Below the pieces are notes generated by a model. That model was not told the DNA's origin, searched no databases, and was given only the letters and a program-made list of their open reading frames with translations. Positions 1 through 20,605 of a stretch of 64,000 bases of DNA are shown here, one piece after another. The DNA is taken from assembly GCA_026004495.1 (NCBI GenBank), contig BPJG01000001.1, positions 277,133 through 341,132 of the forward strand, in the 5' to 3' direction. This stretch comes from Candidatus Parcubacteria bacterium. GTDB lineage: Bacteria; Patescibacteriota; Minisyncoccia; UBA6257; HR35. Numbering within the stretch: position 1 is the first letter of the stretch; each line of letters starts with the position of its first letter. The translations under genes and the position numbers were made by a program.

Positions 1-635
1 ATTTCCTGATTTACTTTTATCTTCTGAATTTTTTTAAGTCGTCTATAACTATTAATTAAATTAATTTTTTCTTGAGTAGATAATTTTTCATCCGACACTA
101 TAAACATGTATTCGTAAACATTAATGGATTCAAAAATTTTGTACAAAAGATAAAATAATTCATCTAAAATTGGTTCTAATAGTTTTTCGGTTGCCTCTAT
201 ATACATTTTGTATTGTTTTCTTGGCTTTTCCTCGTTTATAAAATCTACTGCAAATTTAGTTAAAGCGACACTATCTATAGTTTCTCTTTTGTCAGGCGAT
301 ACTAATTCCCCTTTTGGATTATATCGATTCAGAAAACCCATTGTATCCAAATCTGGAAATATGTTCTTTTTTAATGAATTAACTGTTCCTTGTTCAATTA
401 CATTTTCTAAAACATCAACAATTTTATAATAAGTTTCACAACCTTTTTGCTTTTTACCTTTCCAGTCGCCAATATGAATTTTGAAAATAGAGGTTCCGGC
501 AATATTATTAATTGTCTTTAAAATTTCTAATACCTTATCGAAAGGCAATCTATTATGTTGCGATAAGTGTATACCTCTATAGTCTTCACGTTTTATTCTT
601 TCAAAGATATATTTTAAAAATTTATTTTGGTCCAT
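1..635 (-). CDS. Hypothetical protein, partial (N-terminal 211 aa in window). Probably the restriction endonuclease of the adjacent R-M module.
   Basis: I translated the minus strand by hand. The ATG lies at 635-633, 7 nt downstream of the methyltransferase stop at 643. The reading frame stays open to position 1 with no stop codon (MDQNKFLKYIFERIKREDYRGIHLSQ...KIKVNQE). It lies in the same orientation and is tightly linked to two methyltransferases and a controller protein. The ORF is not in the supplied track because it runs off the window. I recognise no catalytic motif, so the function is inferred from position only. Confidence 0.4.
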   Translation of the reverse strand, partial: MDQNKFLKYIFERIKREDYRGIHLSQHNRLPFDKVLEILKTINNIAGTSIFKIHIGDWKGKKQKGCETYYKIVDVLENVIEQGTVNSLKKNIFPDLDTMGFLNRYNPKGELVSPDKRETIDSVALTKFAVDFINEEKPRKQYKMYIEATEKLLEPILDELFYLLYKIFESINVYEYMFIVSDEKLSTQEKINLINSYRRLKKIQKIKVNQE

Positions 636-642: not shown

Positions 643-1431
643 TTATTTAGATAATTTATTCATCTCCAATAGACGCTTTTGGGCAATCTCTACATATTTT
701 CTGTTATTATCGCATCCAATAAAATTTCTATTAAGTTTTTTTGCCGCGATTGCAGTTGTTCCTATGCCGATAAAGCAATCTAATACAAGATCGCCGGGAT
801 TGCTACTTGCTTTTATAATTCTTTCAATCATATCTAGTGGCTTTGGCGTTAAGTGGGGCAATTTAGGTGTCTTTCCATTAATTTTATTTTTATGTCTTTC
901 GCTCGAAAAATGCCATACATCGGTACATAATTTACCCTTAGGATTCGGAAACCACCTTTTCCCCTTCTTAAGAATTCCTTTAATTTTAGCATGCTCTATT
1001 CTTTCTGCCGACTCATAAGGAACTCTAATTTCATCTGTATTGAATGTGTAATTATTGCTTTTCGTGAAAAATAATATTGTCTCTTGTCCATTTGTATATT
1101 TTCTTTTCGCAGCAGATAACCCATCTCTTTTATCCCAAGTTATCCAGTTCTGGAAAATTAAACTTTTTTTTATCAAGTGTTGTAATATAAAAGCCGAGTT
1201 AAAAGGAGTATTAAAAATATACAAACTTCCAGTTTTTTTAAGTTTTGGTACTAAAGAATCTATCCATTTGTAAGTAAAGTTAAGAAAATCATCATGGGAT
1301 TTAAAGGTATCCCATTTTGCTTTTTTTAAATTGTAAGGCGGATCAATTACAGCGAGATCTATTACCTCATTGTCAATCTTGCTTAAAAAATCAAAACAAT
1401 CCATTAAATAAATTTTATTTATCTTAAGCAT
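643..1431 (-). CDS. DNA methyltransferase, beta-class N6-adenine or N4-cytosine (DPPY motif)
   Basis: Motif IV VIDLAVIDPPYNL is near the N-terminus and motif I LVLDCFIGIGTTAIAA is near the C-terminus. This permuted order is typical of beta-class amino-methyltransferases (N4/N6 methylase domain). Confidence 0.85.
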   Translation of the reverse strand: MLKINKIYLMDCFDFLSKIDNEVIDLAVIDPPYNLKKAKWDTFKSHDDFLNFTYKWIDSLVPKLKKTGSLYIFNTPFNSAFILQHLIKKSLIFQNWITWDKRDGLSAAKRKYTNGQETILFFTKSNNYTFNTDEIRVPYESAERIEHAKIKGILKKGKRWFPNPKGKLCTDVWHFSSERHKNKINGKTPKLPHLTPKPLDMIERIIKASSNPGDLVLDCFIGIGTTAIAAKKLNRNFIGCDNNRKYVEIAQKRLLEMNKLSK

Positions 1432-1436: not shown

Positions 1437-2300
1437 CTAAAATAATTGTTTTTGTTTAATCTCAGCTAATCTTAATTTTTCTTCAATAATATCTTTATAA
1501 GTTTCCATTATTTCGTAACCGACATAGTTTCGGCCTAATTCTTTAGCCACCTTTAAAGTAGTCCCAGAGCCCGCAAATGGGTCTAAAACTATATCCCCAA
1601 TAAAAGTAAATAATTTTACACATCTCCTTACAATCTCTTCTGGCATAATAGCGGAATGTTTTCCGAATGCTATATCATCTTTACCGGGAATAGGTATATT
1701 CCAAATCTGCTTGGTGTATTCTGTCCATTCTTTTTCGGTAAGTTTACTTTTTTCTCGTATTTCTTCTGGCACATTGTTATCTGGTTTTCCATCTTTCACA
1801 TATACGGTAATAAATTCACTTGTATTTTGGGCATAAAAATTTCTGGGATATGGATAACTGCCAAACATTAAATCCTTTGATGGATTAGTTCTATTCCAAA
1901 TATAGATGTCATATAAAAATAATTTTGTATTGTTCAAAATGGAATGTTCTATATCAGCGTTAATATCAAAAATATGTCTATTGTAATGAGTATTAAAATC
2001 TTTTTTAAGCATTGGCATTAAAGGAACATTAATCACTAACTTTCCATTTGGTTTTAAAACCCTTTCGCATTCTTTCCAAACTTTTAACATTTCTTTAATG
2101 TATTGTTTATAATCCTCAATATCTCCAATTTGTCCTTCTTTTTTCTCAGTGATTTTATTTACTTGATAACCATCTTTTGAGTAATCTTTTATATTAAAAT
2201 ATGGCGGTGAGGTCACTATTAAATGAATAGAATTATCCGGAATTTCAGACATATTCCTTGCATCTTTATAAAATACTTTATTTATAAAATCTTTGGTCAT
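1437..2300 (-). CDS. DNA methyltransferase, beta-class (SPPY motif, N4-cytosine-like)
   Basis: IHLIVTSPPYFNIKDY is motif IV; SPPY/SPPF is common in m4C methyltransferases. Motif I (FxGxG) appears as LDPFAGSGTTLKVA near the C-terminus. The stop lies 6 nt upstream of the next methyltransferase start. Confidence 0.85.
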   Translation of the reverse strand: MTKDFINKVFYKDARNMSEIPDNSIHLIVTSPPYFNIKDYSKDGYQVNKITEKKEGQIGDIEDYKQYIKEMLKVWKECERVLKPNGKLVINVPLMPMLKKDFNTHYNRHIFDINADIEHSILNNTKLFLYDIYIWNRTNPSKDLMFGSYPYPRNFYAQNTSEFITVYVKDGKPDNNVPEEIREKSKLTEKEWTEYTKQIWNIPIPGKDDIAFGKHSAIMPEEIVRRCVKLFTFIGDIVLDPFAGSGTTLKVAKELGRNYVGYEIMETYKDIIEEKLRLAEIKQKQLF

Positions 2301-2526: not shown

Positions 2527-2555
2527 ATTAAATTGTTGACACTGCTTACTTTCAA
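2527..2555 (-). promoter_or_regulatory. Candidate sigma-70 promoter for the controller-methyltransferase operon, giving a near-leaderless transcript
   Basis: On the minus strand: TTGAAA (2555-2550), a 17-nt spacer, then TTTAAT (2532-2527). The ATG at 2515 follows about 11 nt later. A perfect palindrome TGATATCA lies at 2520-2527, between the -10 element and the ATG. Confidence 0.3.
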
Positions 2556-2589
2556 GATTATAATAACATAAAATTAAAAATCAAACAAC

Positions 2590-2815
2590 AATTTTTCGCC
2601 CGCGAAGCGGGCGTGAAGGGTGGGCAGGCTCCGAAAATTAAGCCCGCAAAAATTTAATTCATTTTTAAAGGAAAAAATTTGTCGCCCGCCCTTAAATAAA
2701 ATTAAAAAATTTTGCGGGCTTGTCCGCTAAAGGCGGACTTTCGGAGCCATGGGTGGGAATCCGCGAAGCGGATTTCTGCCCCGCCCCGCAAAGCGGGGCG
2801 GGGCAGTTCAGTCAG
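2590..2815. other. GC-rich cluster of nested hairpins of unknown function (possible structured RNA or recombination-associated element)
   Basis: Hairpins: CGCCCGC-GAA-GCGGGCG (2597-2613), ATCCGC-GAA-GCGGAT (about 2758-2772), and a 13-bp stem TGCCCCGCCCCGC-AAA-GCGGGGCGGGGCA (about 2777-2805). Long-range complementary pairs: GGCTCCGAAA (2628) with TTTCGGAGCC (2737); AAGCCCGCAAAA (2640) with TTTTGCGGGCTT (2710); plus GTCCGC-TAAAG-GCGGAC. The GCGAAGC core also recurs inside the 72-bp inverted repeats. Confidence 0.35.
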
Positions 2816-2861
2816 CGTCAGGATTTTGTTGATAGAAAGTTCTAACTTTTTCAAGTAAGTT

Positions 2862-2933
2862 CCACCATAGACGATTTGTTTCGCCCTCGCCCCTCGCTTC
2901 GCTCGGGGCTCGGGCTTCGGCGGGCAGAAAATA
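2862..2933. repeat. Left copy of a perfect 72-bp inverted repeat (IR-L)
   Basis: By manual alignment, the reverse complement of 4429-4500 is identical to 2862-2933 over all 72 positions. About 65% GC. Contains CCACCATAG, the complement of the tRNA-Glu 3' end. Confidence 0.9.
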
Positions 2934-2991
2934 TTTTCGCCGAAGGCGAAAATTCAAAGCGAAATTTTTTAAAAATTGTCGGTGTAAAAAT

Positions 2992-4551
2992 ATGATTAAA
3001 TATTTCATCTATTGTCGAAAATCAACCGAGGAAGAAGAAAGACAAATTCTGTCTATTGAGGCACAACTTCAAGAGCTTCGGGATTTTGCAAAACAAAATA
3101 ATCTTTTTGTTGTCCGCGAATTTACCGAAAAACAATCGGCCAAAGAACCGGGCCGTCCGATTTTTAATGAAATGCTTTCACGAATTGAAAAAGGAGAAAC
3201 TAATGGAATTTTAGCGTGGAATCCCGACCGCCTCGCCAGAAATTCCATTGATGGCGGACGAATTATTTATCTCGTTGATACCGGAAAAATTACCTCGCTA
3301 AAATTCCCGACTTTCTGGTTTGAGCCAACGCCACAAGGAAAATTTATGCTTTCGGTGGCTTTTGGCCAAGCCAAATATTACACCGACAATTTGAGAGAAA
3401 ACATTTTGCGAGGAATAAGACAAAAACTTCGTAGAGGAGAATTGCCGGCAAAAGCGCCACTTGGCTATTTCAATGAGCCAAGATTAAGAACAATTGAACC
3501 AGACCCAAAAACTTTTAAGAAAGTAAAACAATGTTTGGAATCTTTTGCCACTGGCGAATATACTTTAACAAAAATTCAGAGCAAAATGTTTTCTCTTGGC
3601 TTGGTTGGCAAAGACGGAAAACCTTTGCATCTTTCAACAATTCAAGGAATTTTAACCAACCCCTTTTATTATGGAATGTTTTTGTATCGTGGCGAACTAT
3701 ATCAAGGAAGCCATAAGCCAATGATTACAAAGAAACTTTTTGACAAAATACAGGAAGCACTAAAACAAAATAGTAAGCCCCGCAAAAAGCGAAAAGAAAA
3801 ACAATTTTTGTTTTTAGGTTTTGCCCGCTGTGGTGAATGTGGTTATATGATTACTGCTGAAAAACACATTAAGAAAAGCGGTTTAGAATTTGTTTATTAT
3901 CGCTGTACTAAAAAGAGCAAAACAATAAAGTGTTCACAAAATCGCTTTTTGCGGGAAGAAAAATTAGCCGAGCAAATAAAAGATTATGTTCAAAAAGTTT
4001 CTTTACCCGATGAGTGGCGAGAGAAATATCTTGCTAAAGTTAACGAGTGGGAAAAAGAAAATCTTCACTCATCAGAACTTTTCGCTCAAAATCTTAAAAC
4101 TGAATTAGAGAAAGTAAAGTCAAAAATAAATCGCCTGATGGACGCGTATCTTGAAGGCGATTTGGAATTGCCAGAATTTCAGTTAAAGAAAAACGAATTG
4201 ATGACAAAAAAGAAAGATATTGAGGAAAAATTATCTGATTTTGAGCGAAAAGGCAATCATTGGCTCGAACTCACCAGAAATTGGATAATTGAAGCCAACC
4301 AAGCCAAAAATTTCGTTTTGGAAGGTAATTTTTCAGAGATGAGAAATTTTCTACAAAAAATCGGTTCGAACCGAACAATTCGCGACAAAAAACTTACAAT
4401 AGAATTTAAAAAACCTTGGGATTACCTTTATTTTCTGCCCGCCGAAGCCCGAGCCCCGAGCGAAGCGAGGGGCGAGGGCGAAACAAATCGTCTATGGTGG
4501 CCCCAAGGGGAATCGAACCCCTATTTCCACCTTGAAAGAGTGGTGTCCTAG
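2992..4551 (+). CDS. Large serine recombinase (resolvase/integrase family)
   Basis: N-terminal resolvase catalytic motif YCRKSTEEEERQ (nucleophile Ser). A recombinase domain follows. A Cys-rich zinc ribbon: ARCGECGY...YYRCTKKSKTIKC. Coiled-coil C-terminus. Total 519 aa. The last about 40 codons are encoded by IR-R and by the antisense tRNA-Glu, so the true stop is uncertain. GC content is higher than in the flanking genes. Confidence 0.85.
   Translation: MIKYFIYCRKSTEEEERQILSIEAQLQELRDFAKQNNLFVVREFTEKQSAKEPGRPIFNEMLSRIEKGETNGILAWNPDRLARNSIDGGRIIYLVDTGKITSLKFPTFWFEPTPQGKFMLSVAFGQAKYYTDNLRENILRGIRQKLRRGELPAKAPLGYFNEPRLRTIEPDPKTFKKVKQCLESFATGEYTLTKIQSKMFSLGLVGKDGKPLHLSTIQGILTNPFYYGMFLYRGELYQGSHKPMITKKLFDKIQEALKQNSKPRKKRKEKQFLFLGFARCGECGYMITAEKHIKKSGLEFVYYRCTKKSKTIKCSQNRFLREEKLAEQIKDYVQKVSLPDEWREKYLAKVNEWEKENLHSSELFAQNLKTELEKVKSKINRLMDAYLEGDLELPEFQLKKNELMTKKKDIEEKLSDFERKGNHWLELTRNWIIEANQAKNFVLEGNFSEMRNFLQKIGSNRTIRDKKLTIEFKKPWDYLYFLPAEARAPSEARGEGETNRLWWPQGESNPYFHLERVVS
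4429..4500. repeat. Right copy of the perfect 72-bp inverted repeat (IR-R)
   Basis: Exact reverse-complement match to 2862-2933. Overlaps the last 6 nt (CCACCA) of tRNA-Glu at 4495-4500. Confidence 0.9.
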
Positions 4552-4569
4552 CCGTTAGACGATGGGGCC
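4495..4569 (-). tRNA. tRNA-Glu (anticodon UUC), CCA encoded
   Basis: Hand fold of the reverse complement: acceptor GGCCCCA/TGGGGCC; D stem GTCT/GGAC; anticodon stem CCACT/GGTGG with loop CTTTCAA; T arm AGGGG-TTCGATT-CCCCT; discriminator A followed by CCA. Confidence 0.8.
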
Positions 4570-4598: not shown

Positions 4599-4671
4599 AG
4601 GCACGGGTGGGATTTGAACCCACGTATAACGGTTTTGCAGACCGTTTCCTAACCTCTCGGACACCGTGCCG
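4599..4671 (-). tRNA. tRNA-Cys (anticodon GCA)
   Basis: Hand fold: acceptor GGCACGG/CCGTGCC; 3-bp D stem; anticodon stem ACGGT/ACCGT with loop CTGCAAA; T arm GTGGG-TTCAAAT-CCCAC; discriminator U. No CCA encoded. Confidence 0.8.
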
Positions 4672-4708
4672 TAATTTATATAATTATATTTTAAAAATTT
4701 ATTTATTT

Positions 4709-5035
4709 TTAATTTATTACTCTAAAAATTTTATCAATTTCTTCCATAGATTTCAAACTTTGATCATATCTAAAAAAAATTTTTTTAGGAATATATCTTA
4801 AAATTCTCATTTTTTTTATTATTTTTTTTATTTTAGGAATTTCTTTTTTAAGAATTTCAATTACTTCAAAAATTTTTACGTCAGGAAATACACTTAGATA
4901 AATAATCATATTCCCCTTTTTTGACGGCAAGTTAACATCTAAAATAGTTATAATAATTTTATGATCATCAATAATTTCCCTTAGAACCAAAGACAATTTT
5001 TTAATAAATTCAGATTTTTTTCTCTCTTGTAGCAT
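4709..5035 (-). CDS. rbfA: Ribosome-binding factor A
   Basis: A 108-aa protein immediately downstream of infB, which is the conserved gene order. The KH-like RbfA pattern is present (IIITILDVNLPSKKGNMIIYLSVFP). Confidence 0.65.
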   Translation of the reverse strand: MLQERKKSEFIKKLSLVLREIIDDHKIIITILDVNLPSKKGNMIIYLSVFPDVKIFEVIEILKKEIPKIKKIIKKMRILRYIPKKIFFRYDQSLKSMEEIDKIFRVIN

Positions 5036-5047
5036 TATTTAATTTTT

Positions 5048-6493
5048 CTAAATAATTAGTTTATCTCCTAAATTAATAGATGTTGTCGTTTGAATAATTA
5101 AACCACAAAGTTCATCCTTTTTAACTTCATTAGTTTTTATTTTGTTTTTTTCAAGACTTATAATTTTACCCTTACCAATTACTATACCATCTCTAATAAT
5201 TAAAACACGATCATTTAATCTAAGCTCTCCATAAATAACTTTACCGCCAATTGTTTTTTTATTGAGTAATTGATTGAAAACCCCTAAAACCTCTAATTCT
5301 CCTCTAGATTTTTGTTCTTTTTGTTTAATATCAATTAAATCTTTAATTTTATCTTTAATCTCATAAATAACATTTGCTTGGATTAAAATTAAATTTAAAT
5401 TTTTAATTTCTTCATAAATATTTTGGGCAAGCTTTATATTAAAGGCAATTAAAATACTTTCTGTTTGTTTAGCCAATTTCAAATCTTCGCTGGTAATATT
5501 TCCAACATCTCCTTTAATTATTTTAATTTCTATTTTATTTTCTTTGGCTAAATTGTCTAAAATATTTAAAATCGCATCCAAAGAACCATAAAGGTCTGTT
5601 TTAATTATTAAATTTATTCTGGTATCTGTTTCTGAATCTGACGAAAAGTATATTTGTTTTTTAAAACTAATTTCTTTTTCAATTAATTCTTTTTTTATCT
5701 TATCTATTTCGCTCCTATTGATAATTTTAAATATTTCTCCGGGCTGAGGTAAATTTTCAAAACCATTAATAAAAACAGGCATCGAAGGTTTAGCTACGTT
5801 TATTCTTCTAAAGAAAACATCTTCTAAAAATTTAATTTTCCCAGATATAGTAGCTGTCGTAATATAATCCCCCGATTTAACAATTCCATCAGTTATTATT
5901 CCTAAGGATAAAATTCCTTTCTTAGAATCTTTGGTAACCTCTAAAATGTAACCTTCTCCCATTTTATTGTCATCATAATTTAAATTCAAGATATCTCCTA
6001 ATAATAAAATCAAATCCAAAAGTTCATCTATTCCCAAATTTTTAATAGCTGAAATATTAACACAAGGCACTTGTCCTCCCCATTCTTCAACGATAATCCC
6101 TAGTTCAGAAAGTTGTTTTTTTATTTTATCTGGGTTGGCATTTGGTTTATCTATTTTATTTATAGCTACTATAAAGGGTAAATTAAATTTTTTAATATAA
6201 TCTATACATTCTATAGTCTGTGGTTTAATTCCTTCATCAGCAGCGATTATTAAAATAGCTATATCAGCTATTTTTGCTCCTTTTTCCCTTAAACTAAAAA
6301 AATCAGAATGCCCTGGAGTATCAATAAATGTTATTCTTCCATTTTTATACATTATTTCATAAGCAGATACCCTTTGAGTTATTCCGCCTGATTCTTGTTG
6401 GGTTATCTTAGTATTCTGAATTGTATCTAATAATGTAGTTTTCCCATGGTCAATATGACCCAGAATAACTACAATAGGTGGTCTTTTTGTCAT
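5048..6493 (-). CDS. infB: Translation initiation factor IF-2 (short form)
   Basis: G domain: ILGHIDHGKTTLLD, DTPGH, NKID. C-terminal beta-barrel domains follow. Total 481 aa, lacking the long N-terminal extension. Confidence 0.9.
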   Translation of the reverse strand: MTKRPPIVVILGHIDHGKTTLLDTIQNTKITQQESGGITQRVSAYEIMYKNGRITFIDTPGHSDFFSLREKGAKIADIAILIIAADEGIKPQTIECIDYIKKFNLPFIVAINKIDKPNANPDKIKKQLSELGIIVEEWGGQVPCVNISAIKNLGIDELLDLILLLGDILNLNYDDNKMGEGYILEVTKDSKKGILSLGIITDGIVKSGDYITTATISGKIKFLEDVFFRRINVAKPSMPVFINGFENLPQPGEIFKIINRSEIDKIKKELIEKEISFKKQIYFSSDSETDTRINLIIKTDLYGSLDAILNILDNLAKENKIEIKIIKGDVGNITSEDLKLAKQTESILIAFNIKLAQNIYEEIKNLNLILIQANVIYEIKDKIKDLIDIKQKEQKSRGELEVLGVFNQLLNKKTIGGKVIYGELRLNDRVLIIRDGIVIGKGKIISLEKNKIKTNEVKKDELCGLIIQTTTSINLGDKLII

Positions 6494-6503
6494 AGTTTAA
6501 AAA

Positions 6504-6586
6504 TGGGCAGGGAGGGATTCGAACCCTCACGCCTTGTCAGCACTGGGTTCTAAACCCAGCGCGTCTACCAATTCCGCCACCTGCCC
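6504..6586 (-). tRNA. tRNA-Leu (anticodon UAG), class II with long variable arm
   Basis: Hand fold: acceptor GGGCAGG/CCTGCCC; anticodon stem CTGGG/CCCAG with loop TTTAGAA; long variable arm; T arm GAGGG-TTCGAAT-CCCTC; discriminator A. Confidence 0.8.
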
Positions 6587-6646
6587 TTAATTAATTTTTA
6601 AAAAATCTATTTATTAAATTTGAGCTAAAATTAAAATCAATTTTAA

Positions 6647-6675
6647 ATTATAATTGAAATTATAATACTTGTCTA
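6647..6675 (-). promoter_or_regulatory. Candidate promoter upstream of tRNA-Leu / infB operon
   Basis: On the minus strand: TAGACA (6675-6670), a 17-nt spacer, then TATAAT (6652-6647). In AT-rich DNA this could arise by chance. Confidence 0.25.
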
Positions 6676-6685
6676 TATTAAAAAC

Positions 6686-8068
6686 TTATTCTGATTTTGA
6701 TTTTTTAGATTTAGATTTTAAAAATTTATTATAAGATTCTAAGACAATTTCCTTTTCATCCCAAGGAATAATCTCGTTATCCTTAATAATAGATTTTTCA
6801 TTCCCCTTACCTATTAAAACCAAAATGTCTCCTCTTTGGGCCTGTTGAATTAAAAACTCAATAGCTTCTTTACGATCGCTGATAATATGATAAGGTTTAT
6901 AGAATTCATATTCAGATAAATAATTTTTAATTCCATGTTCTATTTCTTTTATTATTTTTAGAGGATCTTCATTGTAGGGATCTTCATCGGTAATAATTAT
7001 TTCTGAGCAATATTTTGCTGCTATTTTACCTATTTCAGGTCTTTTCCATTTATCTCTAATTCCACCAGCCGAACTAATTAAACAAAGCATTCTTTTAGGT
7101 TTAAAAATTTCTAAAATATTTTTATATAATTCCTGAATCGAATCGGGGGTATGGGCATAATCAATTGCTACCTTAAAGCTTTTAAAATTAATTATTTCAT
7201 ATCTTCCAGGTAAATTATCTATATCTTTGAGTATATCCTTAACTAATTTTAGTGAAATATCCAAACTTTTAAAAACACAAAAGGTGGCCAAAATATTATA
7301 AAGATTTTGTTTGCCTAATAATTTAGTAAAATATTGAAAAGATTTTTTACTCTCTTCGTCTTCATTTAGATTAAAATAAGTTCCTGAAGAAGATAATTTA
7401 AATTTAGTAATTTGAAGATGATCGTAATTAGTTAAATTTTTTTCAAAACCAAAAGTAATTTTCCTTTCTGCCGGGAATGAAAGATAATAATCTGCTTCAT
7501 AATCATCGAAATTAGCAATTATTGTTTTTTTTACGACCTTACCTCTGAAAATTTTTCTTTCTCCCCTTAAAAGATTTTGAAATAATTTACCCTTATCTTT
7601 CTTATAGTTTTCAAAGCTTCCATGATGTTCAATATGCTCAGGATGAATATTTAAAAAAATAGCAATATCAAAATCAATAAATTTATGTCTATTTTGCATT
7701 AAGCCCTCTGAGCTAGCTTCAACAACGGCAACCTCACATCTATTATCAACTGCCTTTTTTAAAAATTCTTGTAAATATAGTCTCCCCGGCATTGTAATCC
7801 TTGACTTGTTTTCAATTTCTTCTTCGCCAAGATAAAAAAACTGACTTGAGGATAGAGCTGTTTTTATACCCAATGAATTTAATATCTTATATATTAGATA
7901 ACATGTTGTTGTTTTTCCTTTTGTTCCCGTAACTCCAATAACAATTATTTTTTTTGAAGGATATTTAAAAATTAATGCCCCTATTAAGGCATATAAATAA
8001 TGATAAAAATTAATAAATGACTTAGGTATTTTTTTTCTAATTTTATTTTTAAAATTAATCATCTTCAA
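6686..8068 (-). CDS. Mur ligase family protein (MurE-like UDP-MurNAc-tripeptide synthetase)
   Basis: P-loop VIGVTGTKGKTTT. Central-domain motifs HPEHIEHHGSFENYKKDK and DYAHTPDS (MurE has DYAHTPDA). The TDEDPYNEDP segment sits where the DNPR motif for diaminopimelate normally lies. The N-terminal domain is short. Confidence 0.6.
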   Translation of the reverse strand: MKMINFKNKIRKKIPKSFINFYHYLYALIGALIFKYPSKKIIVIGVTGTKGKTTTCYLIYKILNSLGIKTALSSSQFFYLGEEEIENKSRITMPGRLYLQEFLKKAVDNRCEVAVVEASSEGLMQNRHKFIDFDIAIFLNIHPEHIEHHGSFENYKKDKGKLFQNLLRGERKIFRGKVVKKTIIANFDDYEADYYLSFPAERKITFGFEKNLTNYDHLQITKFKLSSSGTYFNLNEDEESKKSFQYFTKLLGKQNLYNILATFCVFKSLDISLKLVKDILKDIDNLPGRYEIINFKSFKVAIDYAHTPDSIQELYKNILEIFKPKRMLCLISSAGGIRDKWKRPEIGKIAAKYCSEIIITDEDPYNEDPLKIIKEIEHGIKNYLSEYEFYKPYHIISDRKEAIEFLIQQAQRGDILVLIGKGNEKSIIKDNEIIPWDEKEIVLESYNKFLKSKSKKSKSE

Positions 8069-8172
8069 TTAATAAATTCTTAATTTTTAAAATCTCTTTA
8101 ATTTTATCATTAATTTCATTTTCTTTCTTCAGTTCACTTCTAAGATATTTTTTTATAGATCTAATATATTTT

Positions 8173-9075
8173 TTAATACTCTTGGGTAATCTTTTTTTGA
8201 ATTTCTTCTCTAATCTCTTCATAGTTGCCAATGCCTGCTTTAGGCATTAATCCACTTACATTAAAATCGAACTTAATATTAAAGTAATCGCTTGTCCATA
8301 ATTTACTATTTAAATCAATTAAAATTTCTTTAAATTCTGATTTTTTAATTTGCTTACTTATTTTAAATATTTCTGAATGGTTTAAATTAGTTTCATAATG
8401 ATTTTTGGATTGTAAAATTAAATTAAATAAGCCTAATAATTCATATTCAGAAGAATTCAATAACCTTTCTTTAAGAGAGGTTAAAATTATAAACTGATTT
8501 TTCATTCTTTCAAAGTCCCCTTGAGGATAATATCTTGATCTGACAATAAATTCAATCCAACTACTACTAAATTTCCTTTTTCCTGGCATTAGAGTATATC
8601 CAGTGACAGCATCAGTAACGGGATACTTAAGATCAACCTCTAACCCTCCTAAATAATCAATAGTCTTCTTTAGAATATAAAGATCAAAAACAAAATATTT
8701 TTTTATATTTAAACCTGTTAATTTAGAGATCTCGGAAAGAAGATAGTCTGTTTTTTTCAATGAATAAAGGGAATTTATTTTTAATAAATCATTATCAATT
8801 TTAACTATCAAATCTCGAGGAATATGAATAATATAAACTTTATTGTTTTTAAAAAGCATAGCAAAAATAGAATCGGTATTTTCTCCTCCGATATAACCTG
8901 TACCCATTTTGCCTAAAATTAAAACCGGTGGCAAGGATTTTTTTTCAAAACTAAAAAGTAGCTTACTTTCCTCTCTTATGAAGTCTAATTTTTTTGTAAT
9001 AAAAATAAAATTAAATAGAAAAATTAAAAAAAATATAAGAGCAATAAAAAATAATAAATATTCTAAACTTTTCAT
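8173..9075 (-). CDS. LytR-CpsA-Psr (LCP) family protein
   Basis: N-terminal transmembrane anchor, then DSIFAMLF...IHIPRDLIV, resembling the LCP core (DTIMLL..I.RD). Total 300 aa. Confidence 0.5.
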   Translation of the reverse strand: MKSLEYLLFFIALIFFLIFLFNFIFITKKLDFIREESKLLFSFEKKSLPPVLILGKMGTGYIGGENTDSIFAMLFKNNKVYIIHIPRDLIVKIDNDLLKINSLYSLKKTDYLLSEISKLTGLNIKKYFVFDLYILKKTIDYLGGLEVDLKYPVTDAVTGYTLMPGKRKFSSSWIEFIVRSRYYPQGDFERMKNQFIILTSLKERLLNSSEYELLGLFNLILQSKNHYETNLNHSEIFKISKQIKKSEFKEILIDLNSKLWTSDYFNIKFDFNVSGLMPKAGIGNYEEIREEIQKKITQEY

Positions 9076-9077
9076 TA

Positions 9078-10595
9078 TTAGTTATTTTTAAAATTAGATA
9101 TTTTAATTCCAAAAGCATCACCAACAATTTCTTCTGATAAAAATTTTAATTTATTATCTAAGCAAAAATTTAAACATTGACTAAGAAGATAACTAGAATT
9201 ATCCAAAAGAGAATTATTATTTTTAAAATAATTCTTAGCTAAAGAAACTATTTTACTAAAAGATCGGGGATATATTTCTATTTGATTATTTAAATAAGAA
9301 AGAACAAGTATTATTAAAACCTCTTTTTCGCTAAGATCTTTTAAGAATATTATTTTAAATCTGTCAATCAATTTGAATCTTATTTTTATACTTTCAAAAT
9401 TATCAGGAGTAGTGGTTAGAATTATGTTAAGATTAGAATTAATTAAAAATTCTTTTATTTCTAACAAATTGAAATTAAAATTAAATTTATGAATATCAGG
9501 AATAAACAATATTGAGTCAGGATAATTAATGGCTTCTAAAAAAACAGGTTTCAAATCGTTAATTGATTCTGTTTTTAATTCAAAAATTTTTTTATTTAAA
9601 AATTTTTCAGATACTTCATTTCGTATAATTAAATAAACTAAGTGATAAATTAATGATTTTTTACCTATGTTTTCTGGCCCAACTAAAATTAGACGAATAT
9701 TATTTTTTTGTTTTAAAATTTCTAATAATTCTTCCTCTCTATTTATTAGCCATCCAAATTTTTCTAGCTTTACTGAAATGTTTAAATTTGTAGTTAGTTT
9801 ATCTAAAAATTTATACCTTCTTAAATTTAAAAGATCATAATCTAACCAATCTATTTTAGAAATTAAATTAACAAAATTTTTAATAGGTTGACGATTAAAA
9901 AGGAGATAAGAAGCATAAATATCTAAATAATTAATTTTAAATTTAGTTAACAATAATTCTAAAAGAGGATGATTTCTTTCTAAAATGGAAATAAGTAGGC
10001 TAAAGGCTGTTATTTTGTCATTGTTAAAACATTTAGATATTTTATAACTCTTAATTAGTAGTGGTTCGAGATTTCGCCAGATGATTAAACCTTCTTTATT
10101 AAATGAATCTATTCGTTTATAATATTCAAAATCTTTTATGATTTCATTGAGCTCTTTTTTAATTTCATAGGTGTTAGTATTTAATTTAGTAAATAGCTGC
10201 GATATTTCTTTTAGCTCTATTAAATTATTAAAAATCAATAAATCTAATTGAGCAATATTTTTTGTTTCTAAAATTGAATTCAAAATAATAAGTTTTAAAT
10301 CTTCATCTAAATAATCGATTAAAAAATTCGTTTTTTCAAATAATAAATTTTTAAAAGATTTTTTTTTAAATATTAATATATCTAACAAAAAAATAAAAAA
10401 AAGCCAAAAGCTTATAACGGTTAAATATTTATTGTTAGATAAAAACAATCCTAAGCTAAAAAATAAAATTAAGTACTTTAATGAAAAATATAAAATTTTA
10501 TATATCCTAATTTGATAATTTTTAAGATTAATTAGTTTTAAAAAATTATTCATAGTATCAATAAAAAGCTTATAATAAAAGGTAGGCTTAGCCAA
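9078..10595 (-). CDS. Hypothetical membrane-anchored protein with a P-loop (LILVGPENIGKKS)
   Basis: A 505-aa ORF with N-terminal hydrophobic helices and a Walker-A-like GxxxxGKK motif in the C-terminal half. I recognise no family. Confidence 0.45.
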   Translation of the reverse strand: MAKPTFYYKLFIDTMNNFLKLINLKNYQIRIYKILYFSLKYLILFFSLGLFLSNNKYLTVISFWLFFIFLLDILIFKKKSFKNLLFEKTNFLIDYLDEDLKLIILNSILETKNIAQLDLLIFNNLIELKEISQLFTKLNTNTYEIKKELNEIIKDFEYYKRIDSFNKEGLIIWRNLEPLLIKSYKISKCFNNDKITAFSLLISILERNHPLLELLLTKFKINYLDIYASYLLFNRQPIKNFVNLISKIDWLDYDLLNLRRYKFLDKLTTNLNISVKLEKFGWLINREEELLEILKQKNNIRLILVGPENIGKKSLIYHLVYLIIRNEVSEKFLNKKIFELKTESINDLKPVFLEAINYPDSILFIPDIHKFNFNFNLLEIKEFLINSNLNIILTTTPDNFESIKIRFKLIDRFKIIFLKDLSEKEVLIILVLSYLNNQIEIYPRSFSKIVSLAKNYFKNNNSLLDNSSYLLSQCLNFCLDNKLKFLSEEIVGDAFGIKISNFKNN

Positions 10596-10831
10596 AAAAT
10601 TATTAACGATAAATAAATAATAAAATTAATGGAGATAAATAAAAATTGAAGAAAAATACTTAAAAATTTAATATTTTTAAAACCAAGTTTATAATTTAAA
10701 AAATAGGCAAATTTTAAATTATTGTTTTTAAATAGATAAGAAAGAATAATATTAGCCTCAAAAAAATAAAATTTTATAAATTTATAAATTAACTGAATTA
10801 AATCAGTAAATAATAAGTAAATCAAAGTCAT
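10550..10831 (-). CDS. Small hydrophobic hypothetical protein; possibly not a real gene
   Basis: A 93-aa ORF that is entirely hydrophobic and low-complexity. It overlaps the upstream gene by 46 nt. Confidence 0.2.
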   Translation of the reverse strand: MTLIYLLFTDLIQLIYKFIKFYFFEANIILSYLFKNNNLKFAYFLNYKLGFKNIKFLSIFLQFLFISINFIIYLSLIIFWLSLPFIISFLLIL

Positions 10832-10836
10832 TTATT

Positions 10837-12093
10837 TTAAAAAAGTGTTTTTTTGAGATTATTTGCTAAAGATTGATTATTAATAATCTTTATTTTACCA
10901 TATTCACCATCATAACCTGGTTGAATAAAAATTTCACCCTGAGAAATTTTTTCTAAGGCGTTATAAATATCAGGGTAATTAATCTTCATTTTTTCCTTAT
11001 CAAAATTTTCTAACAAAATATCAATTTCAGGACCAAAATTTTTAATAACATCTATATAAATATCTAAAATTTTTTTAGCTGTTGGCTGGGATCGATAGAT
11101 TTCAGCCAAAATTTCTGTTAAGGGAATAACTTTTTTAAAACTAGGACGATTATTATCAAAATAATATGCCGATCTGGAGGCTAATTCTTCTACCCTACTC
11201 ATTACTCCTATAGTTAATTTTTTTTTACAAACTGGACAAAGATAATTATTTTTTTTTGATTCTTCGGGCGAAAATGAAATATTGCACAATCTATGCCCAT
11301 CATAATGATATTTACCCTCTTCAGGGAAAAATTCAATTGTCATTAATATTTTATTTTTATCATCAGGATTTTTAAGAGCTTTAAATAAAAAATTGTAATT
11401 TAAATCTTCCAAATTAAAAATGGTAGCCTCACGACCAAGTCGATGAGGATATGCAGAATGAGCATCAGAAAAAGAAACTATGGCTAAATCATCAAGTTCT
11501 TCAATTCTCCAATTCATCTGAGGATCAGACGATAAACCAGTTTCAACTGCAGCAATATATTTCGTATTATCTCCAAAAGAATCATAAATAGAATCAAAGC
11601 CAGACATTGAACCATAAAGCGAAAACCAAGGTGTCCAAATATGAGCAGGAATAAAGATAACACTTTCATTTATATCTAAAGAAATTTTTAACACTTCATT
11701 GGCATCTAAACCTAAAATTGGTCGACCATCACTTTTTAAATTAGCAAAGACAGAAATCTTTTTTACAAATTTATCAACCGAATCGAAATCTGGAAAAATT
11801 ACTAAATAGTGAATTCTTCTAACTTTATCGTATTTTTTGTAAATTGAACTTAATTCACAACCTAAAAGAAAATATATGCTCTGTGGATCGTTTTTTAGTC
11901 GAAAAAAGCCATATTTTTCTTCTTTTAATTTTTTTCTCAATTCTAACAACCATAATGGGTGAGTAAAATCTCCGGTAGCAAGTAAGTTTAATCCTTTTAT
12001 TTTTGCCCAATAATTTAAAATCTCTAAGCTTAAATTTTTAGAACAACCTCGAGAATATTTAGAATGAAGATGAAGATCAGCTATAATTTGCAT
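10837..12093 (-). CDS. PHP-domain protein, endonuclease Q-like
   Basis: N-terminal PHP motif IIADLHLHSKYSRGCS. A Cys cluster near the C-terminus (YLCPVCKKK). Total 418 aa, the size of archaeal EndoQ. Confidence 0.5.
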   Translation of the reverse strand: MQIIADLHLHSKYSRGCSKNLSLEILNYWAKIKGLNLLATGDFTHPLWLLELRKKLKEEKYGFFRLKNDPQSIYFLLGCELSSIYKKYDKVRRIHYLVIFPDFDSVDKFVKKISVFANLKSDGRPILGLDANEVLKISLDINESVIFIPAHIWTPWFSLYGSMSGFDSIYDSFGDNTKYIAAVETGLSSDPQMNWRIEELDDLAIVSFSDAHSAYPHRLGREATIFNLEDLNYNFLFKALKNPDDKNKILMTIEFFPEEGKYHYDGHRLCNISFSPEESKKNNYLCPVCKKKLTIGVMSRVEELASRSAYYFDNNRPSFKKVIPLTEILAEIYRSQPTAKKILDIYIDVIKNFGPEIDILLENFDKEKMKINYPDIYNALEKISQGEIFIQPGYDGEYGKIKIINNQSLANNLKKTLF

Positions 12094-12567
12094 TTAAAAA
12101 AGATGATCGGCAATTTTGCTTGCCGCATATGACTCTGGTTTAATTTTTACCTCCAAGCCATAACCCCTGATAAGATTAATAAGTTCTTTAATTACACTTT
12201 TACTTTTTCCGTTAATACCCAAATCTAAATGAACCTCGAAATTAAATTTCAGATTTTTTTTAAGCAAAAGTTTTAATATTTTTTTACTTAATTCTAAACT
12301 TAAAATGGCTTCTTGCCAAAGTCTTGAATATAAATCTATTTTTTTATTTGTTGAAATTTTTTTCCAAAAATAACGAGCTCCATATCCAACCCGATGAACA
12401 ACAATTACTGAAATAAATTCCGTTATCTTTTCTTTGTTTTCAGAATCAGTTCCAATAAATATTTTATATTTATATTCCGGTTTTTCTAAAATAAAAGTTT
12501 CTATTATCTTTAATATTTCTTGAGAAGATATATTTTGACCATTTGCGCTTCTAAAACCTTCAAGCAT
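12094..12567 (-). CDS. Hypothetical protein (possibly RNase H-like fold, YkuK/DUF458-like)
   Basis: A 157-aa ORF containing KIFIGTDSE. The family assignment is from memory only. Directly adjacent to the PHP-domain gene. Confidence 0.35.
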   Translation of the reverse strand: MLEGFRSANGQNISSQEILKIIETFILEKPEYKYKIFIGTDSENKEKITEFISVIVVHRVGYGARYFWKKISTNKKIDLYSRLWQEAILSLELSKKILKLLLKKNLKFNFEVHLDLGINGKSKSVIKELINLIRGYGLEVKIKPESYAASKIADHLF

Positions 12568-13531
12568 TTTTATTTTTATTTAAGATGATCATACTATAAA
12601 GTTCAATTAAAACTAATGAAAGTGGTAAAATTGTTAGAATTCCTAACACCCCTCCTATTTTAGTGCCTACCAAAATAGAGGCTAAAGTTATTAATGGTTT
12701 TATCTGAAAAATTTTTTTAGCTATAAAAGGAATAAGTAAATTATTTTCTACTTGTTGAATTAAAACAAAGCTTGCCATAACTAAAAAAACTTTATCAGGT
12801 ACAATAGAAAATGTTATTAAAATAGCCAACGAGGCTGCAATAATTGGTCCTAAAATTGGAACAATTTCCAATAAACCAGCAATAAGAGAAATTAATCCCG
12901 CATAAGGAATTTTTAAAACTGATAAAACTAAATAGGTTAAAAGTCCTATAAAAATCATTAAAAATAATTGACCGGCAAGCCATAAAGAAAATTGTTTTTT
13001 TATTTTAATATATGTATTTATATAAAAATTATATTTATCACCAAAAATAAACTTAAATAAATCAGGAAAAAAATTAGGCTGAGTAGCTACATAAAAAGAA
13101 ATTATAATAATTAGAAAAAAATTAAAAAATCCTCCTAGGATATTTATAAAATAAGAAGAAATGCCAAAAACTGTTTCGGGTGTTGTTTTTAAAAATTTAT
13201 TAAAAATAAAATTTAAATCCAAGTCTAAACCATAATCACTTAAAAAGTCTTGAATTTTAGGATAAAGATTTTTAAATTCTTTAGTAAACACAGGCAGCAA
13301 AAAATAGATTGAAATTATTAATATAAAAATAAAAATTAAATAGATTAAGATTATATTAACAAAGAATGGAATTTTTAAATATTTTCTGATTAAAATTGCC
13401 CATTCTTGGATAGCGATACCTAAAGCTGTAGAAAAAAATAAAATAAAAAATATATCTTTTATATACCAAAGAAAAAATAAAAAAGTAGGTATTAACCAAA
13501 AATAAATATTTGACAAATTTTGTTGATTCAT
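12560..13531 (-). CDS. Polytopic membrane protein, AI-2E (UPF0118) transporter-like
   Basis: A 323-aa protein with about 8 predicted transmembrane segments arranged as in the AI-2E/PerM family. Confidence 0.45.
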   Translation of the reverse strand: MNQQNLSNIYFWLIPTFLFFLWYIKDIFFILFFSTALGIAIQEWAILIRKYLKIPFFVNIILIYLIFIFILIISIYFLLPVFTKEFKNLYPKIQDFLSDYGLDLDLNFIFNKFLKTTPETVFGISSYFINILGGFFNFFLIIIISFYVATQPNFFPDLFKFIFGDKYNFYINTYIKIKKQFSLWLAGQLFLMIFIGLLTYLVLSVLKIPYAGLISLIAGLLEIVPILGPIIAASLAILITFSIVPDKVFLVMASFVLIQQVENNLLIPFIAKKIFQIKPLITLASILVGTKIGGVLGILTILPLSLVLIELYSMIILNKNKNA

Positions 13532-13555
13532 TTTATTAAATTATATCATACCAAA

Positions 13556-14587
13556 TTAAATTTTTAGATTAGGATGAACTTCTAAATTGGCCGGGAGGAT
13601 AGATTCATCTTTAAAAAAATAACCACTAAAAGCAATTTTAATTCCATTATCTGTAGCTAATGATTTTACCGGGAAAATTATTTTATTTTTACCAAAATAT
13701 TTAATAAACATTTTTCTTAAATAATAATTAGCTGCTACTCCACCTGAAATAATTAAAGATTTAGGTTTATATTTTTCATCGGCCATTTTGGTTTTAATAA
13801 GTAAAATTTCAAATGCTGTTTTTTGATAAGAAGCAGCTAAATCTGCCTTAGTAACTTCATCTAATTTTTTATATCTTTTAATCTCCTCAACTAATTCCCA
13901 AAAGGCTGTCTTTAGGCCTGAAAAACTAAAATTAAAATTTTTAGTTGCCATTAAGGGATAAGGCAAATTAAAAATAGGCCTTCCTTTTTTAGCTAATTTT
14001 TCTAATTTAGGACCGCCGGGATACTCCAGGCCCAATATTCTAGCAGATTTATCTAAACTTTCTCCAATAGCATCATCAATAGTTTCACCAATTTTTTTAA
14101 TTTTATCTAAAGATTCAAAATAAACCAACAAGGTATGTCCTCCAGAAATTAGAAGGCCAATTGCCGGCAGGGATATTGTTTTTATTTTTTGCCAAATATT
14201 TAACTTATTTTTATTAATTAAAACAGAATAAAAGTGGGCAATCAAATGATTGATTGGTATAATATTAACATTTAGTTTATTAGCTAAATCAATAACAAAT
14301 TCCTTTCCGGAAATTAAAGATGGTGGCAATCCAGGACCATTACTAAAAGCAAGAAAATCAATTTTTTCTTCTGAAAAATTAATTTCTCTAATTAATTGTT
14401 GATAAAGTATTGGTAAATTTTTTTTATGTTCTCTGGCGGCTAAAATAGGAACAATTCCGCCATAAACTGAATGAATATTATTCTGACTTCTTAATTTGTG
14501 ATTTAAAATTCTAAATCTAGAATTTTTAAATTCTATTAAGGCTAATCCAGTTTCATCGCAAGTAGTTTCAATTCCTAGTATTATCAT
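13556..14587 (-). CDS. tsaD: tRNA N6-adenosine threonylcarbamoyltransferase
   Basis: N-terminus MIILGIETTCDETGLALIE. Kae1/TsaD architecture. Total 343 aa. Confidence 0.9.
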   Translation of the reverse strand: MIILGIETTCDETGLALIEFKNSRFRILNHKLRSQNNIHSVYGGIVPILAAREHKKNLPILYQQLIREINFSEEKIDFLAFSNGPGLPPSLISGKEFVIDLANKLNVNIIPINHLIAHFYSVLINKNKLNIWQKIKTISLPAIGLLISGGHTLLVYFESLDKIKKIGETIDDAIGESLDKSARILGLEYPGGPKLEKLAKKGRPIFNLPYPLMATKNFNFSFSGLKTAFWELVEEIKRYKKLDEVTKADLAASYQKTAFEILLIKTKMADEKYKPKSLIISGGVAANYYLRKMFIKYFGKNKIIFPVKSLATDNGIKIAFSGYFFKDESILPANLEVHPNLKI

Positions 14588-14622
14588 AAGAAAATATAAA
14601 TTAAGTTTTTTAGTAGTTAAAA

Positions 14623-15996: not shown

Positions 15997-16049
15997 TTTT
16001 AATTAAATTATAAATCAAATTAAAAAATTATCAATAATTAAAAATATAA

Positions 16050-18037: not shown

Positions 18038-18040
18038 TTA

Positions 18041-18295: not shown

Positions 18296-18298
18296 TTA

Positions 18299-18574: not shown

Positions 18575-18575
18575 C

Positions 18576-20604: not shown

Positions 20605-20605
20605 T

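Follow-up and report, generated by a model that had tools for sequence, protein, structure and literature searches.

The stretch analyzed here, 64,000 nt of contig BPJG01000001.1 from a Candidatus Parcubacteria bacterium (hereafter the window, in whose positions all coordinates are given), carries near its start a GC-rich block of hairpins, which is embedded in an island whose insertion point is the 3' end of a tRNA-Glu gene (Table 1). The parts of this island follow one another in the order restriction-modification (R-M) cargo, XRE-type helix-turn-helix (HTH) gene, back-to-back promoters, block, inverted copy of the recombinase 3' end, gene of a large serine recombinase (LSR), and tRNA-Glu, with the inverted copy comprising a P-type attachment (att) half-site, a 17-codon tail, and a 72-bp inverted repeat. 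The left end of the island lies beyond window position 1. The block is thereby wedged between the P-type half-site with its tail and the divergent promoters of the XRE repressor gene, and we consider it very probable that it is the structured non-coding flank of the att region of an island belonging to a large family in Candidate Phyla Radiation (CPR)/Patescibacteria genomes, inserted by LSRs at tRNA CCA ends. Among the coding parts, the two methyltransferases of the cargo matched PF01555 with E values of 2e-65 and 2e-51, while the recombinase matched the Pfam Resolvase, Recombinase, and zinc-ribbon domains (E = 9e-22, 2e-11, and 1e-9, respectively) and was ∼25% identical to its relatives in the PDB, A118 Int and SPbeta SprA.

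Table 1. Features of the island in window coordinates
Feature	Position	Strand	Remarks
Open frame, cargo	3-635	-	Runs past window start; no Pfam match
N6/N4 DNA methyltransferase gene, cargo	643-1431	-	PF01555
N6/N4 DNA methyltransferase gene, cargo	1437-2300	-	PF01555
XRE-type HTH regulator gene, 72 aa	2297-2515	-	Pfam HTH_3, E = 6e-17
Sigma-70-type promoter TTGACA-17-TATAAT	2536-2564	+	12/12 match, directed into block; predicted start ~2571
Promoter-like site TTGATT-16-TATAAT for HTH gene	2557-2584	-	-10 overlaps -10 of + strand promoter (palindromic ATTATAAT)
Hairpin 1	2597-2613	+	CGCCCGC-GAA-GCGGGCG
GGGTGGG motif, first copy	2618-2624	+	G-rich, 5' side of junction domain
Junction domain D	2627-2748	+	P1 + P3 + P4, from minimum free energy folds
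P1	2627-2636/2739-2748	+	GGCTCCGAAA pairs with TTTCGGAGCC
P3	2640-2655/2706-2721	+	AAGCCCGCAAAAATTT with AAAATTTTGCGGGCTT, 16 nt, 94% complementary
P4	2722-2738	+	GTCCGC-TAAAG-GCGGAC
GGGTGGG motif, second copy	2751-2757	+	3' side of P1; can lengthen hairpin 5 via three G.U pairs
Hairpin 5	2758-2774	+	AATCCGC-GAA-GCGGATT
Hairpin 6	2776-2789/2793-2806	+	Perfect 14-bp G/C stem, AAA loop
Native recombinase C-terminal tail	2808-2861	-	NLLEKVRTFYQQNPDAD + stop; doubles as putative P-type (P') att half-site
Left 72-bp inverted repeat	2862-2933	+	Reverse complement of last codons of recombinase open reading frame; starts CCACCA
Spacer	2934-2991	+	Hairpin TTTTCGCC-GAA-GGCGAAAA (2934-2952) and conserved AAATTGTCGGTGTAA box directly before ATG
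LSR gene, 519 aa	2992-4551	+	Pfam Resolvase + Recombinase + Zn_ribbon_recom
Right 72-bp inverted repeat	4429-4500	+	Inside recombinase open reading frame; last 6 nt TGGTGG = CCACCA 3' end of tRNA-Glu
tRNA-Glu (UUC)	4495-4569	-	Integration target; attB right half, B'

The block proper (2597 to 2806) consists of four strong hairpins and a three-way junction. An earlier reading made from the letters of the window alone (the sequence-only reading) had described a GC-rich set of nested hairpins between the R-M operon and the recombinase gene, and every element of that description was present: the two enclosing long-range pairs correspond to P1 and P3, and the G/C stem with the AAA loop is there as well, with a length of 14 bp instead of 13 bp. 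P3 encloses a ∼50-nt A/T-rich interior containing CGCCCGCCC, and hairpin 6 ends 1 nt from the stop codon of the recombinase-tail reading frame. Folding of both strands, as that reading had proposed, gave minimum free energy (MFE) values of -117.3 kcal/mol (z = -8.1) for the plus strand and -115.4 kcal/mol (z = -8.4) for the minus strand; none of 200 dinucleotide shuffles folded as stably, and with DNA parameters the z score was -8.2. The block is the only stretch of at least 60% GC outside tRNA, rRNA, and coding sequence in the window, whose mean is ∼25% GC. The GCGAAGC core, said to recur in the 72-bp repeats, does occur once in each repeat besides twice in the block; the recurrence is real and its significance slight, since four copies against 1.15 expected were reached in 3 of 100 shuffles, which is only marginally significant. 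The exclusion of a CRISPR array was confirmed, as no tandem, direct, or CRISPR-like periodic repeats were found at the locus, and so was that of a canonical terminator, given that no T-run follows any hairpin of the block on either strand and that the only terminator-like match at the locus was the spacer hairpin at 2933 to 2953, read on the minus strand.

The suggested check against covariance-model databases was negative, with no family in Rfam 15 matching the block at gathering or permissive thresholds in the window and 12 related loci. The best sub-threshold match there reached 22.6 bits against a threshold of 45, and the only families above the gathering threshold were tRNA and LSU rRNA. 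In the literature searched, no description of the block or of the island architecture was found. The block is a new structured module that no catalogue lists; it forms part of a mobile island instead of being a free-standing non-coding RNA (ncRNA) gene. A protein-coding reading was also considered, as some relatives carry a Shine-Dalgarno-like AAAGGGAG and plus-strand open reading frames (ORFs) of 87 to 118 aa across the block, and was dropped because loci L098 and L079 do not share the frame and no signal of this kind occurs in the window.

The 72-bp repeats flanking the recombinase gene are 100% identical and inverted. Their identity stops within the CCA end of tRNA-Glu, with an overlap of 6 nt, and because the TGGTGG that closes the right repeat is the CCACCA end of the tRNA, the last 17 recombinase codons read antisense through the tRNA gene. 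To the left of the left repeat, ∼50 nt are conserved in relatives, and the minus strand of this segment continues the recombinase frame; the tail frame in relatives reads WW-x-L-x-K-[VI]-R-T-x-F-x-x-N-P-stop, with synonymous codon changes (AGA/CGA). Judging from this pattern, the conserved tail is the native C terminus of the recombinase and an att half-site. In the window tail, a GAAC motif lies 25 nt from the start of TGGTGG. In 43 of 64 distinct tail-side sequences of the family GAAC begins at +27, and in 51 of 73 tRNA-side sequences, where it belongs to the T-loop TCGAAC, it begins at +22; hence, the element side has the motif 5 bp farther out from the crossover. Work by Rutherford and colleagues from 2013 reportedly found that attP and attB half-sites of A118-type integrases differ by a 5-bp outward shift of one motif. 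The crossover would so fall within TGGTGG, and attP would span the end of the recombinase gene. Because attP overlaps the 3' end of its gene, insertion swaps the last 17 codons of the LSR for tRNA-antisense codons.

The recombinase apparently reads the universal tRNA T-loop (TCGAAC) and could use nearly any CCA-encoding tRNA or transfer-messenger RNA (tmRNA) gene; since this target is common to all tRNAs, recombinases that are 90% identical are found at different tRNAs, namely, tRNA-Glu in the window and tRNA-Ala in L081. The presence of a complete inverted copy of the attP region (repeat, crossover site, tail, and flank) upstream of the LSR gene, with the block as its outer part, is well supported. 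The block begins ∼55 bp from the crossover, outside the P-type half-site, and considering both this distance and its lack in the cargo-less element L092, it is not part of the minimal att site, that is, it is att flank and not core. Both versions of the tail (2808-2861 on the minus strand and 4501-4551 on the plus strand) carry an E-x-N-P-D-like stretch, because both half-sites resemble the tRNA T-arm. A tail-dependent switch of recombinase activity is conceivable from the two C termini.

To place the island among its relatives, 160 loci were fetched (L001 to L160) and compared together with the window, 161 in all. Recombinase homologues number in the thousands at 70 to 90% identity in many CPR lineages, many of them on contigs of 1.6 to 2.5 kb. 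The plan of the window, with the same inverted repeat, was found in 135 of the 161 loci; the repeat is 72 bp in the window and typically 124 to 135 bp, up to 188 bp, in relatives, and 67 of the 135 pairs were 100% identical. Its right copy always coincides with the last ∼150 nt of the recombinase ORF, encoding the final ∼45 residues. Because the repeats are identical within a locus yet widely different between genomes, the pairs evolve in concert. The recombinase ORF is convergent with the tRNA in 125 of 127 complete ORFs and runs toward a tRNA or tmRNA 3' end in nearly all of the ∼55 loci scanned for tRNAs, where the targets are mostly tRNA-Ala, along with tRNAs for Gln, Asn, Glu, Arg, Leu, and Gly and tmRNA.

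In the 18 to 22 relatives in which the left junction (host to tail) is visible, a third copy of the tail lies 2 to 5 kb leftward in the opposite orientation, and the match of this far-left copy extends over 110 to 400 bp at 94 to 100% identity, is usually perfect, and takes in most of the GC-rich block. The general plan can be written as host, tail and reverse-complemented block, cargo, HTH gene, promoters, block and reverse-complemented tail, reverse-complemented repeat, spacer, recombinase gene ending in the repeat, and tRNA, with islands of 2 to 7 kb at tRNA 3' ends. Seen against this plan, the sequence-only reading was right about the existence of the 72-bp repeats and had overlooked that they are inverted and bound the recombinase gene, that the right one is the recombinase 3' end abutting tRNA-Glu, that the stretch between block and repeat holds the native C-terminal tail on the opposite strand, and that the block of relatives makes up one of the two arms of a long inverted repeat enclosing the cargo.

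The cargo of these islands varies widely and includes R-M systems of the HinP1I and EcoRI types, an OLD/Gabija-like ATPase-nuclease, GmrSD, a MORC-like ATPase, TIR, Ltp, and erm with aph, as well as a tyrosine integrase and radical-SAM enzymes. Defense-gene cargo dominates in L002, L016, L073, L079, and L063, each with a small XRE gene preceding it, and the cargo of L013 (3322-5242) encodes an Erm-type rRNA adenine dimethylase and an APH-family phosphotransferase, putative macrolide and aminoglycoside resistance genes. Homologues of the HTH gene, as ORFs of 65 to 71 aa, lie 260 to 450 nt from the left repeat in 21 loci. Cargo ORFs were examined in 18 islands, and no Rep or relaxase was found among them. 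Both orientations of the cargo arc occur, with the HTH gene beside the far copy in L034 and a similar arrangement in L063. The cargo-less element L092 retains 22 nt of the tail in a palindrome and has no block.

Some assemblies carry a recombinase with its native tail, namely, L157, L188, L189, and 6 of 120 protein clusters (P0025, P0031, P0033, P0036, P0087, and P0088), two of which hold 36 and 105 member sequences. Beyond that tail lies the block, in the other sense, and past it the HTH gene and cargo, running in the same direction. These assemblies could represent an isomer with an inverted recombinase arc, an excised circle, or an assembly path through the repeat, all three compatible with short-read contigs that start inside the repeat.

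Conservation of the block lies in its fold. BLAST of the block against the first 80 loci gave no match; homology emerged only from closer metagenome relatives and from a covariance model, and sequence similarity was limited to L081 (85% over 340 nt) and fragments in L123 and L125. In L081, the closest relative of the window, host genes adjoin a decayed HTH gene and the block is single-copy. Hairpin 1 changes there from CGCCCGC/GCGGGCG to GCCTGCC/GGCGGGC, a stem that stays perfect with four pairs altered in both arms and one U.G among its pairs; the terminal hairpin, CTGCCCCGCCCCGC-AAA in the window, is CTGCCCGCTCGCC-TTCG in L081, a different perfect 13-bp stem at the same place; the closing U.G of P4 becomes C-G; P1 is shortened on both sides; and hairpin 5 is identical. 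Two alternative pairings that compete with the main fold are likewise kept in L081: AAGGGTGGG (2616-2624) can pair with CCCGCCCTT (2685-2693) inside P3, and GGGTGGGAATCCGC (2751-2764) can pair with GCGGATTTCTGCCC (2768-2781) by way of three G.U pairs and at the expense of the base of the 14-bp hairpin.

Other sub-families carry different yet recognizably modular hairpin blocks. A hairpin at the position of hairpin 6 recurs in other families, and GGG(T/A)GGG flanks stand on either side of P1 in loci of the L065/L110 type and appear in the loop of the M1 hairpin of other families. The junction module of relatives (P1 around P2, an A/T-rich P3 with GC clamp and conserved interior, and P4) aligns with window positions 2627 to 2748. 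A covariance model of this module, R1, built from 13 loci with the window left out, matched the window at 2628 to 2747 on the plus strand with 45 bits (E = 2.3e-7) against 25.9 bits on the minus strand, and it also matched L081, L125, and far-left copies in the opposite orientation. All 32 R1 pairs covary with changes on both sides among 64 distinct sequences, 93.9% of the alignment cells are paired versus 72% in shuffles, and the covariation score was 0.406 versus 0.128 in shuffles and 0.06 to 0.085 with slid partners. Pairing, the loss of which in homologous islands had been named as speaking against the structure, was thus kept with compensatory changes. Over the 230 nt upstream of the tail, the fold z score was below -3 in 29 of 58 non-redundant loci, with the window (-8.3) and L081 (-10.3) among the most structured. 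These comparisons point to a block conserved in fold, not in sequence.

As to what the block does, we put forward tentatively that it could be a barrier or leader, with both its transcription and its barrier function deduced from the features described here. The 12/12 promoter would transcribe the block as the first ∼240 nt of an RNA heading to the att copy and the LSR gene, and the stable stack of GC hairpins would act as a transcription or RNA barrier or as a structured leader. Such a barrier would insulate the att site and the recombinase gene from transcription of the cargo/regulator module, and recombinase expression would thereby stay low and be governed by the XRE repressor. Sister islands have this sequence, in an unchanged transcript sense, at the far end of the cargo operon as well, where it would stop read-out into the host.

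Several observations favor this proposal. The block is duplicated with 94 to 100% identity at both exits of the cargo module in sister islands; L092, which has no cargo, has no block; and the GC-rich stems are retained in a host of 25% GC. The 12/12 promoter is also kept in L081, a plus-strand promoter matching at least 10 of 12 positions stands at the equivalent relative position in 29 of 68 loci, where it often overlaps with the start codon of the HTH gene, and no 12/12 site was found when 20 kb of host DNA was scanned for sigma-70 promoters. Moreover, the triloops of the block hairpins are biased in the sense of outward transcription (GAA 16 and AAA 10 versus TTC 3), and because the two block copies are inverted, this sense is the one read by transcription leaving the cargo module on either side.

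Other observations weigh against a barrier or leader. No U-tract follows the hairpins on either strand; host positions 4601 to 24600 of the window held 6 hairpin-plus-T-run terminators against 6.2 in shuffles, that is, no excess, and the host may not rely on canonical intrinsic terminators. The branched domain with its conserved 50-nt interior is more elaborate than a barrier would require, close relatives differ over the block in a variable, mosaic fashion, and no second copy is visible for the window island, whose left end is off the window. The transcription step is read from the promoter match. In the stems of 23 plus-sense domains, 635 of 699 cells are Watson-Crick, 14 are G.T, and 16 are A.C; with no G.U excess, perfect Watson-Crick arms fit homogenization of a DNA palindrome as well as selection on RNA. 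In addition, three modules have their loops or interiors flipped between loci (M3 loop, tail-proximal hairpin loop, and P3 interior), and sequence-specific RNA loops would not tolerate such inversion. Taken as a whole, identity as att flank together with a role as barrier or leader is the best explanation that we can offer, plausible more than probable.

The absence of a G.U excess and the flipping of hairpin loops between loci point toward maintenance of the palindrome at the DNA level. Flip-flop with the sequence kept was seen at L012:2299-2437, L159:79-232, and the M3 hairpins of L065, L071, L102, L110, L115, L119, and L143, where the M3 loop GGAAGGGGGT(T/C)(G/T)GGGGGAAGG is a near mirror repeat of purines. 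MFE did not differ between plus and minus strands (p = 0.14), and automatically found hairpins gave 12 G.T versus 22 A.C, a noisy count dominated by spurious A/T hairpins. The island plainly homogenizes inverted repeats hundreds of bases long, and template switching in quasi-palindromes would mimic compensatory change. Other evidence favors a role of one strand, probably as RNA, namely, the plus-strand promoter, the triloop bias, and the promoter-proximal M1 hairpin of other families, which combines seven different perfect stems with a conserved G-rich loop in a fixed orientation.

A DNA-level element, in which cruciforms or single-strand hairpins serve the recombinase as an architectural or accessory part (in synapsis, directionality, or autoregulation from the upstream att copy), accommodates much of this and is still rather unlikely in our estimate; in a variant, the palindromes would stimulate the recombination and gene conversion by which the long inverted repeats stay identical and the cargo module is flipped. 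Almost purely Watson-Crick stems with G.T about as frequent as A.C, a loop and interior that flip between loci, a position within a perfect inverted repeat of 110 to 400 bp, cargo in both orientations (L034 and L063), and the z score of the DNA fold all agree with it. C-GAA-G triloops dominate the loops of the block, and Hirao and colleagues are said to have found d(GCGAAGC)-type triloops exceptionally stable in DNA. Characterized large serine recombinases, however, require only ∼50-bp sites, and the block starts beyond the half-site and is missing from L092, an apparently intact minimal element. An accessory recombination site, one of the roles first suggested for the block, is for the same reasons not upheld as part of the minimal site and is otherwise kept as a candidate. 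The triloop strand bias and the never-flipped M1 argue for a strand-specific rather than a duplex role, and the DNA-level element has no known protein partner.

A further reading, which we judge unlikely, is a regulatory RNA made from the promoter at 2536 to 2564. Here the 3' part of the transcript, the complement of the tail and the 72-bp repeat, would be perfectly antisense to the 3' end of the recombinase mRNA, with the block as a stabilizing or protein-binding 5' domain, and by this pairing the RNA would regulate how stable the recombinase mRNA is or how well it is translated, perhaps in one way when the island is integrated and in another when it is excised. A transcript from the strong conserved promoter necessarily holds the complement of 4429 to 4500, and in L157, L188, and L189 the unit of promoter and block and the recombinase gene point toward each other, the arrangement classic for cis-antisense RNAs. 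M1, with its seven perfect stems, conserved G-rich loop, and fixed orientation, is in keeping with selection on one strand, as is the extended hairpin 5, which uses three G.U pairs possible on the plus strand only. The structured ncRNA or antisense regulator proposed in the sequence-only reading thus retains the conserved strong promoter into the block, whereas the lack of an overall G.U excess (14 G.T versus 16 A.C) and the flipping of loops and modules run counter to it. Furthermore, the block sequence is not conserved between sub-families, no Rfam family matches, and no terminator delimits a small RNA, so that the RNA may be a mere leader of the recombinase mRNA.

The same perfect stems with no wobble tolerance, and the same loop flip-flop, would be produced if the block had no function of its own, that is, if selfish or neutral quasi-palindromes were created and kept perfect by template switching and arm-to-arm gene conversion, as the long inverted repeats of the island are kept identical, and rode along when the island moves, with covariation as a by-product. 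Cassette-like mosaic variation between close relatives, complete absence in L092, and the lack of significant structure at the block position in half of the loci are compatible with this, which we nevertheless consider improbable: unpaired motifs (the M1 loop, the M3 loop, the P3 interior, and the GGGTGGG flanks) are conserved across families, GC-rich stems persist in hosts of 25 to 55% GC, the covariance model found the junction architecture across families of dissimilar sequence, and the triloop strand bias is strong. The palindromic mini-element that had been suggested was not upheld as a dispersed one, as scans of the 64-kb window with R1 and for GC content found a single copy, tied to the island family, and its role is otherwise kept as a candidate.

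CPR bacteria are thought to depend on DNA uptake, and the block and the inverted attP duplication might be adaptations to a single-stranded DNA (ssDNA) stage of an island spreading by natural transformation, which we hold to be highly improbable. Because the flank is present once per orientation, either entering strand would carry one correctly oriented hairpin array; the array could prime complementary-strand synthesis like a single-strand origin (sso), and the strand could fold its att copies into a double-stranded attP. In a related reading, structured RNA or DNA may partner with the exchangeable recombinase tail and set direction without a separate directionality factor. Integration of an ssDNA hairpin itself was set aside, as a serine recombinase cleaves both strands and the chromosome ends would be left capped by hairpins. 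A guide or bridge-type RNA, in which the block programs the tRNA choice of the recombinase by base pairing, would suit a structured non-coding region beside the gene and the presence of 90%-identical recombinases at tRNA-Glu and tRNA-Ala, and is rejected, as far as the sequence can show, with scarcely any reservation, since the longest block match to the own tRNA averaged 6.87 nt versus 7.06 nt to the tRNAs of other loci (p = 0.77, 53 loci), a protein half-site on the T-loop accounts for target promiscuity, the minimal element has no block, the recombinase class differs from the IS110 type, and guides are not known from serine recombinases.

Compared with known systems, the family is closest in enzyme and site to the large serine integrases (A118, Bxb1, phiC31, and SPbeta SprA), sharing the three-domain recombinase, a short att core with central crossover, P- and B-type half-sites with a motif displaced by 5 bp, and hybrid junctions on integration. 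Unlike these, it has its attP inside the recombinase ORF, targets generic features, the 3' end and T-loop, that many tRNAs and tmRNA offer, and keeps an inverted second copy of the attP region (72- to 190-bp repeat, tail, and flank) upstream of the gene, while its long perfect nested inverted repeats and hairpin-rich flank lack a counterpart in the model systems. No gene for a recombination directionality factor was seen in the island. The minus-strand ORF 2808-3008 was considered as a gene of its own or as such a factor and is unsupported, the ATG-started ORF of L081 being in another frame.

Broussard and colleagues reportedly described in 2013 temperate mycobacteriophages in which attP lies inside the repressor gene and integration alters that gene. 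As there, an ORF is cut at attP, its C terminus is changed, and both termini are under selection; the mycobacteriophage system, however, alters a repressor and uses a tyrosine recombinase, whereas here the serine recombinase alters its own tail and a spare inverted copy is kept. The inverted repeats of the 2-micron plasmid and of chloroplasts similarly split two unique arcs by identical copies holding a recombinase site, with the cargo arc in both orientations and repeat identity maintained, but the island is an integrated, non-replicating element of 2 to 7 kb with a serine integrase instead of Flp. For this comparison, and for that with Hin/Gin invertases, only ∼5% of assemblies carry the native tail, which is ambiguous as inversion of the recombinase arc.

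Repetitive extragenic palindromes and bacterial interspersed mosaic elements (REP/BIME), together with d(GCGAAGC) mini-hairpins, resemble the block as mosaics of GC-rich imperfect palindromes at gene ends, in either orientation, with C-GAA-G loops. Unlike REP/BIME and miniature inverted-repeat transposable elements, the block is single-copy in 64 kb, has no REP-associated tyrosine transposase, and is confined to the island family. Folded, strand-biased, cassette-like non-coding regions of 150 to 300 nt are known from the sso of rolling-circle plasmids, integron attC, and CTX attP, the last also sharing the inverted duplication of the att region. The island differs from all three in having, by the cargo scan, no Rep, relaxase, or tyrosine recombinase and in a serine recombinase that cuts both strands, which is incompatible with integration of a hairpin substrate.

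CPR/Patescibacteria have tiny genomes with few described mobile elements. The island is of a broadly known kind with an unusual and highly regular architecture, marked by an attP within the recombinase gene, an exchangeable C-terminal tail, and nested perfect inverted repeats. One recombinase family, with 70 to 90% protein identity across many CPR lineages, builds islands of 2 to 7 kb at tRNA ends that shuttle defense genes and even erm and aph, and the family looks like a defense-gene shuttle for these bacteria. Should the block prove to control how the recombinase is expressed or in which direction it acts, this would account for the regulation of a serine integrase island that has no visible directionality factor; if it is only a barrier or a neutral palindrome, it would be an ordinary by-product of a mobile element. 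Generic targeting of the tRNA T-loop could also interest developers of integrase tools.

A phage origin of the island family was dropped because of its near-absence from IMG/VR, where a search returned only one 45% relative and one contig, L184 (IMGVR_UViG_3300032070_000632). On this 77-kb contig, classed as viral and with no nearby tRNA, a tail with structured arm at 10730 to 11079 continues, in frame, the end of an ORF for a C5 DNA methyltransferase, and its junction domain scored 136 bits; the copy may be a secondary insertion site or a remnant. Elsewhere in the window, a 23S rRNA gene lies at 32533 to 35487, and because no 16S or 5S match was found nearby, the rRNA genes appear unlinked. 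Finally, the recombinases of L004 and L015, 77% and 72% identical to the query, are from one metagenome-assembled genome (KR13_S3.mb.134), and since they share this genome bin, one genome can hold several such islands.

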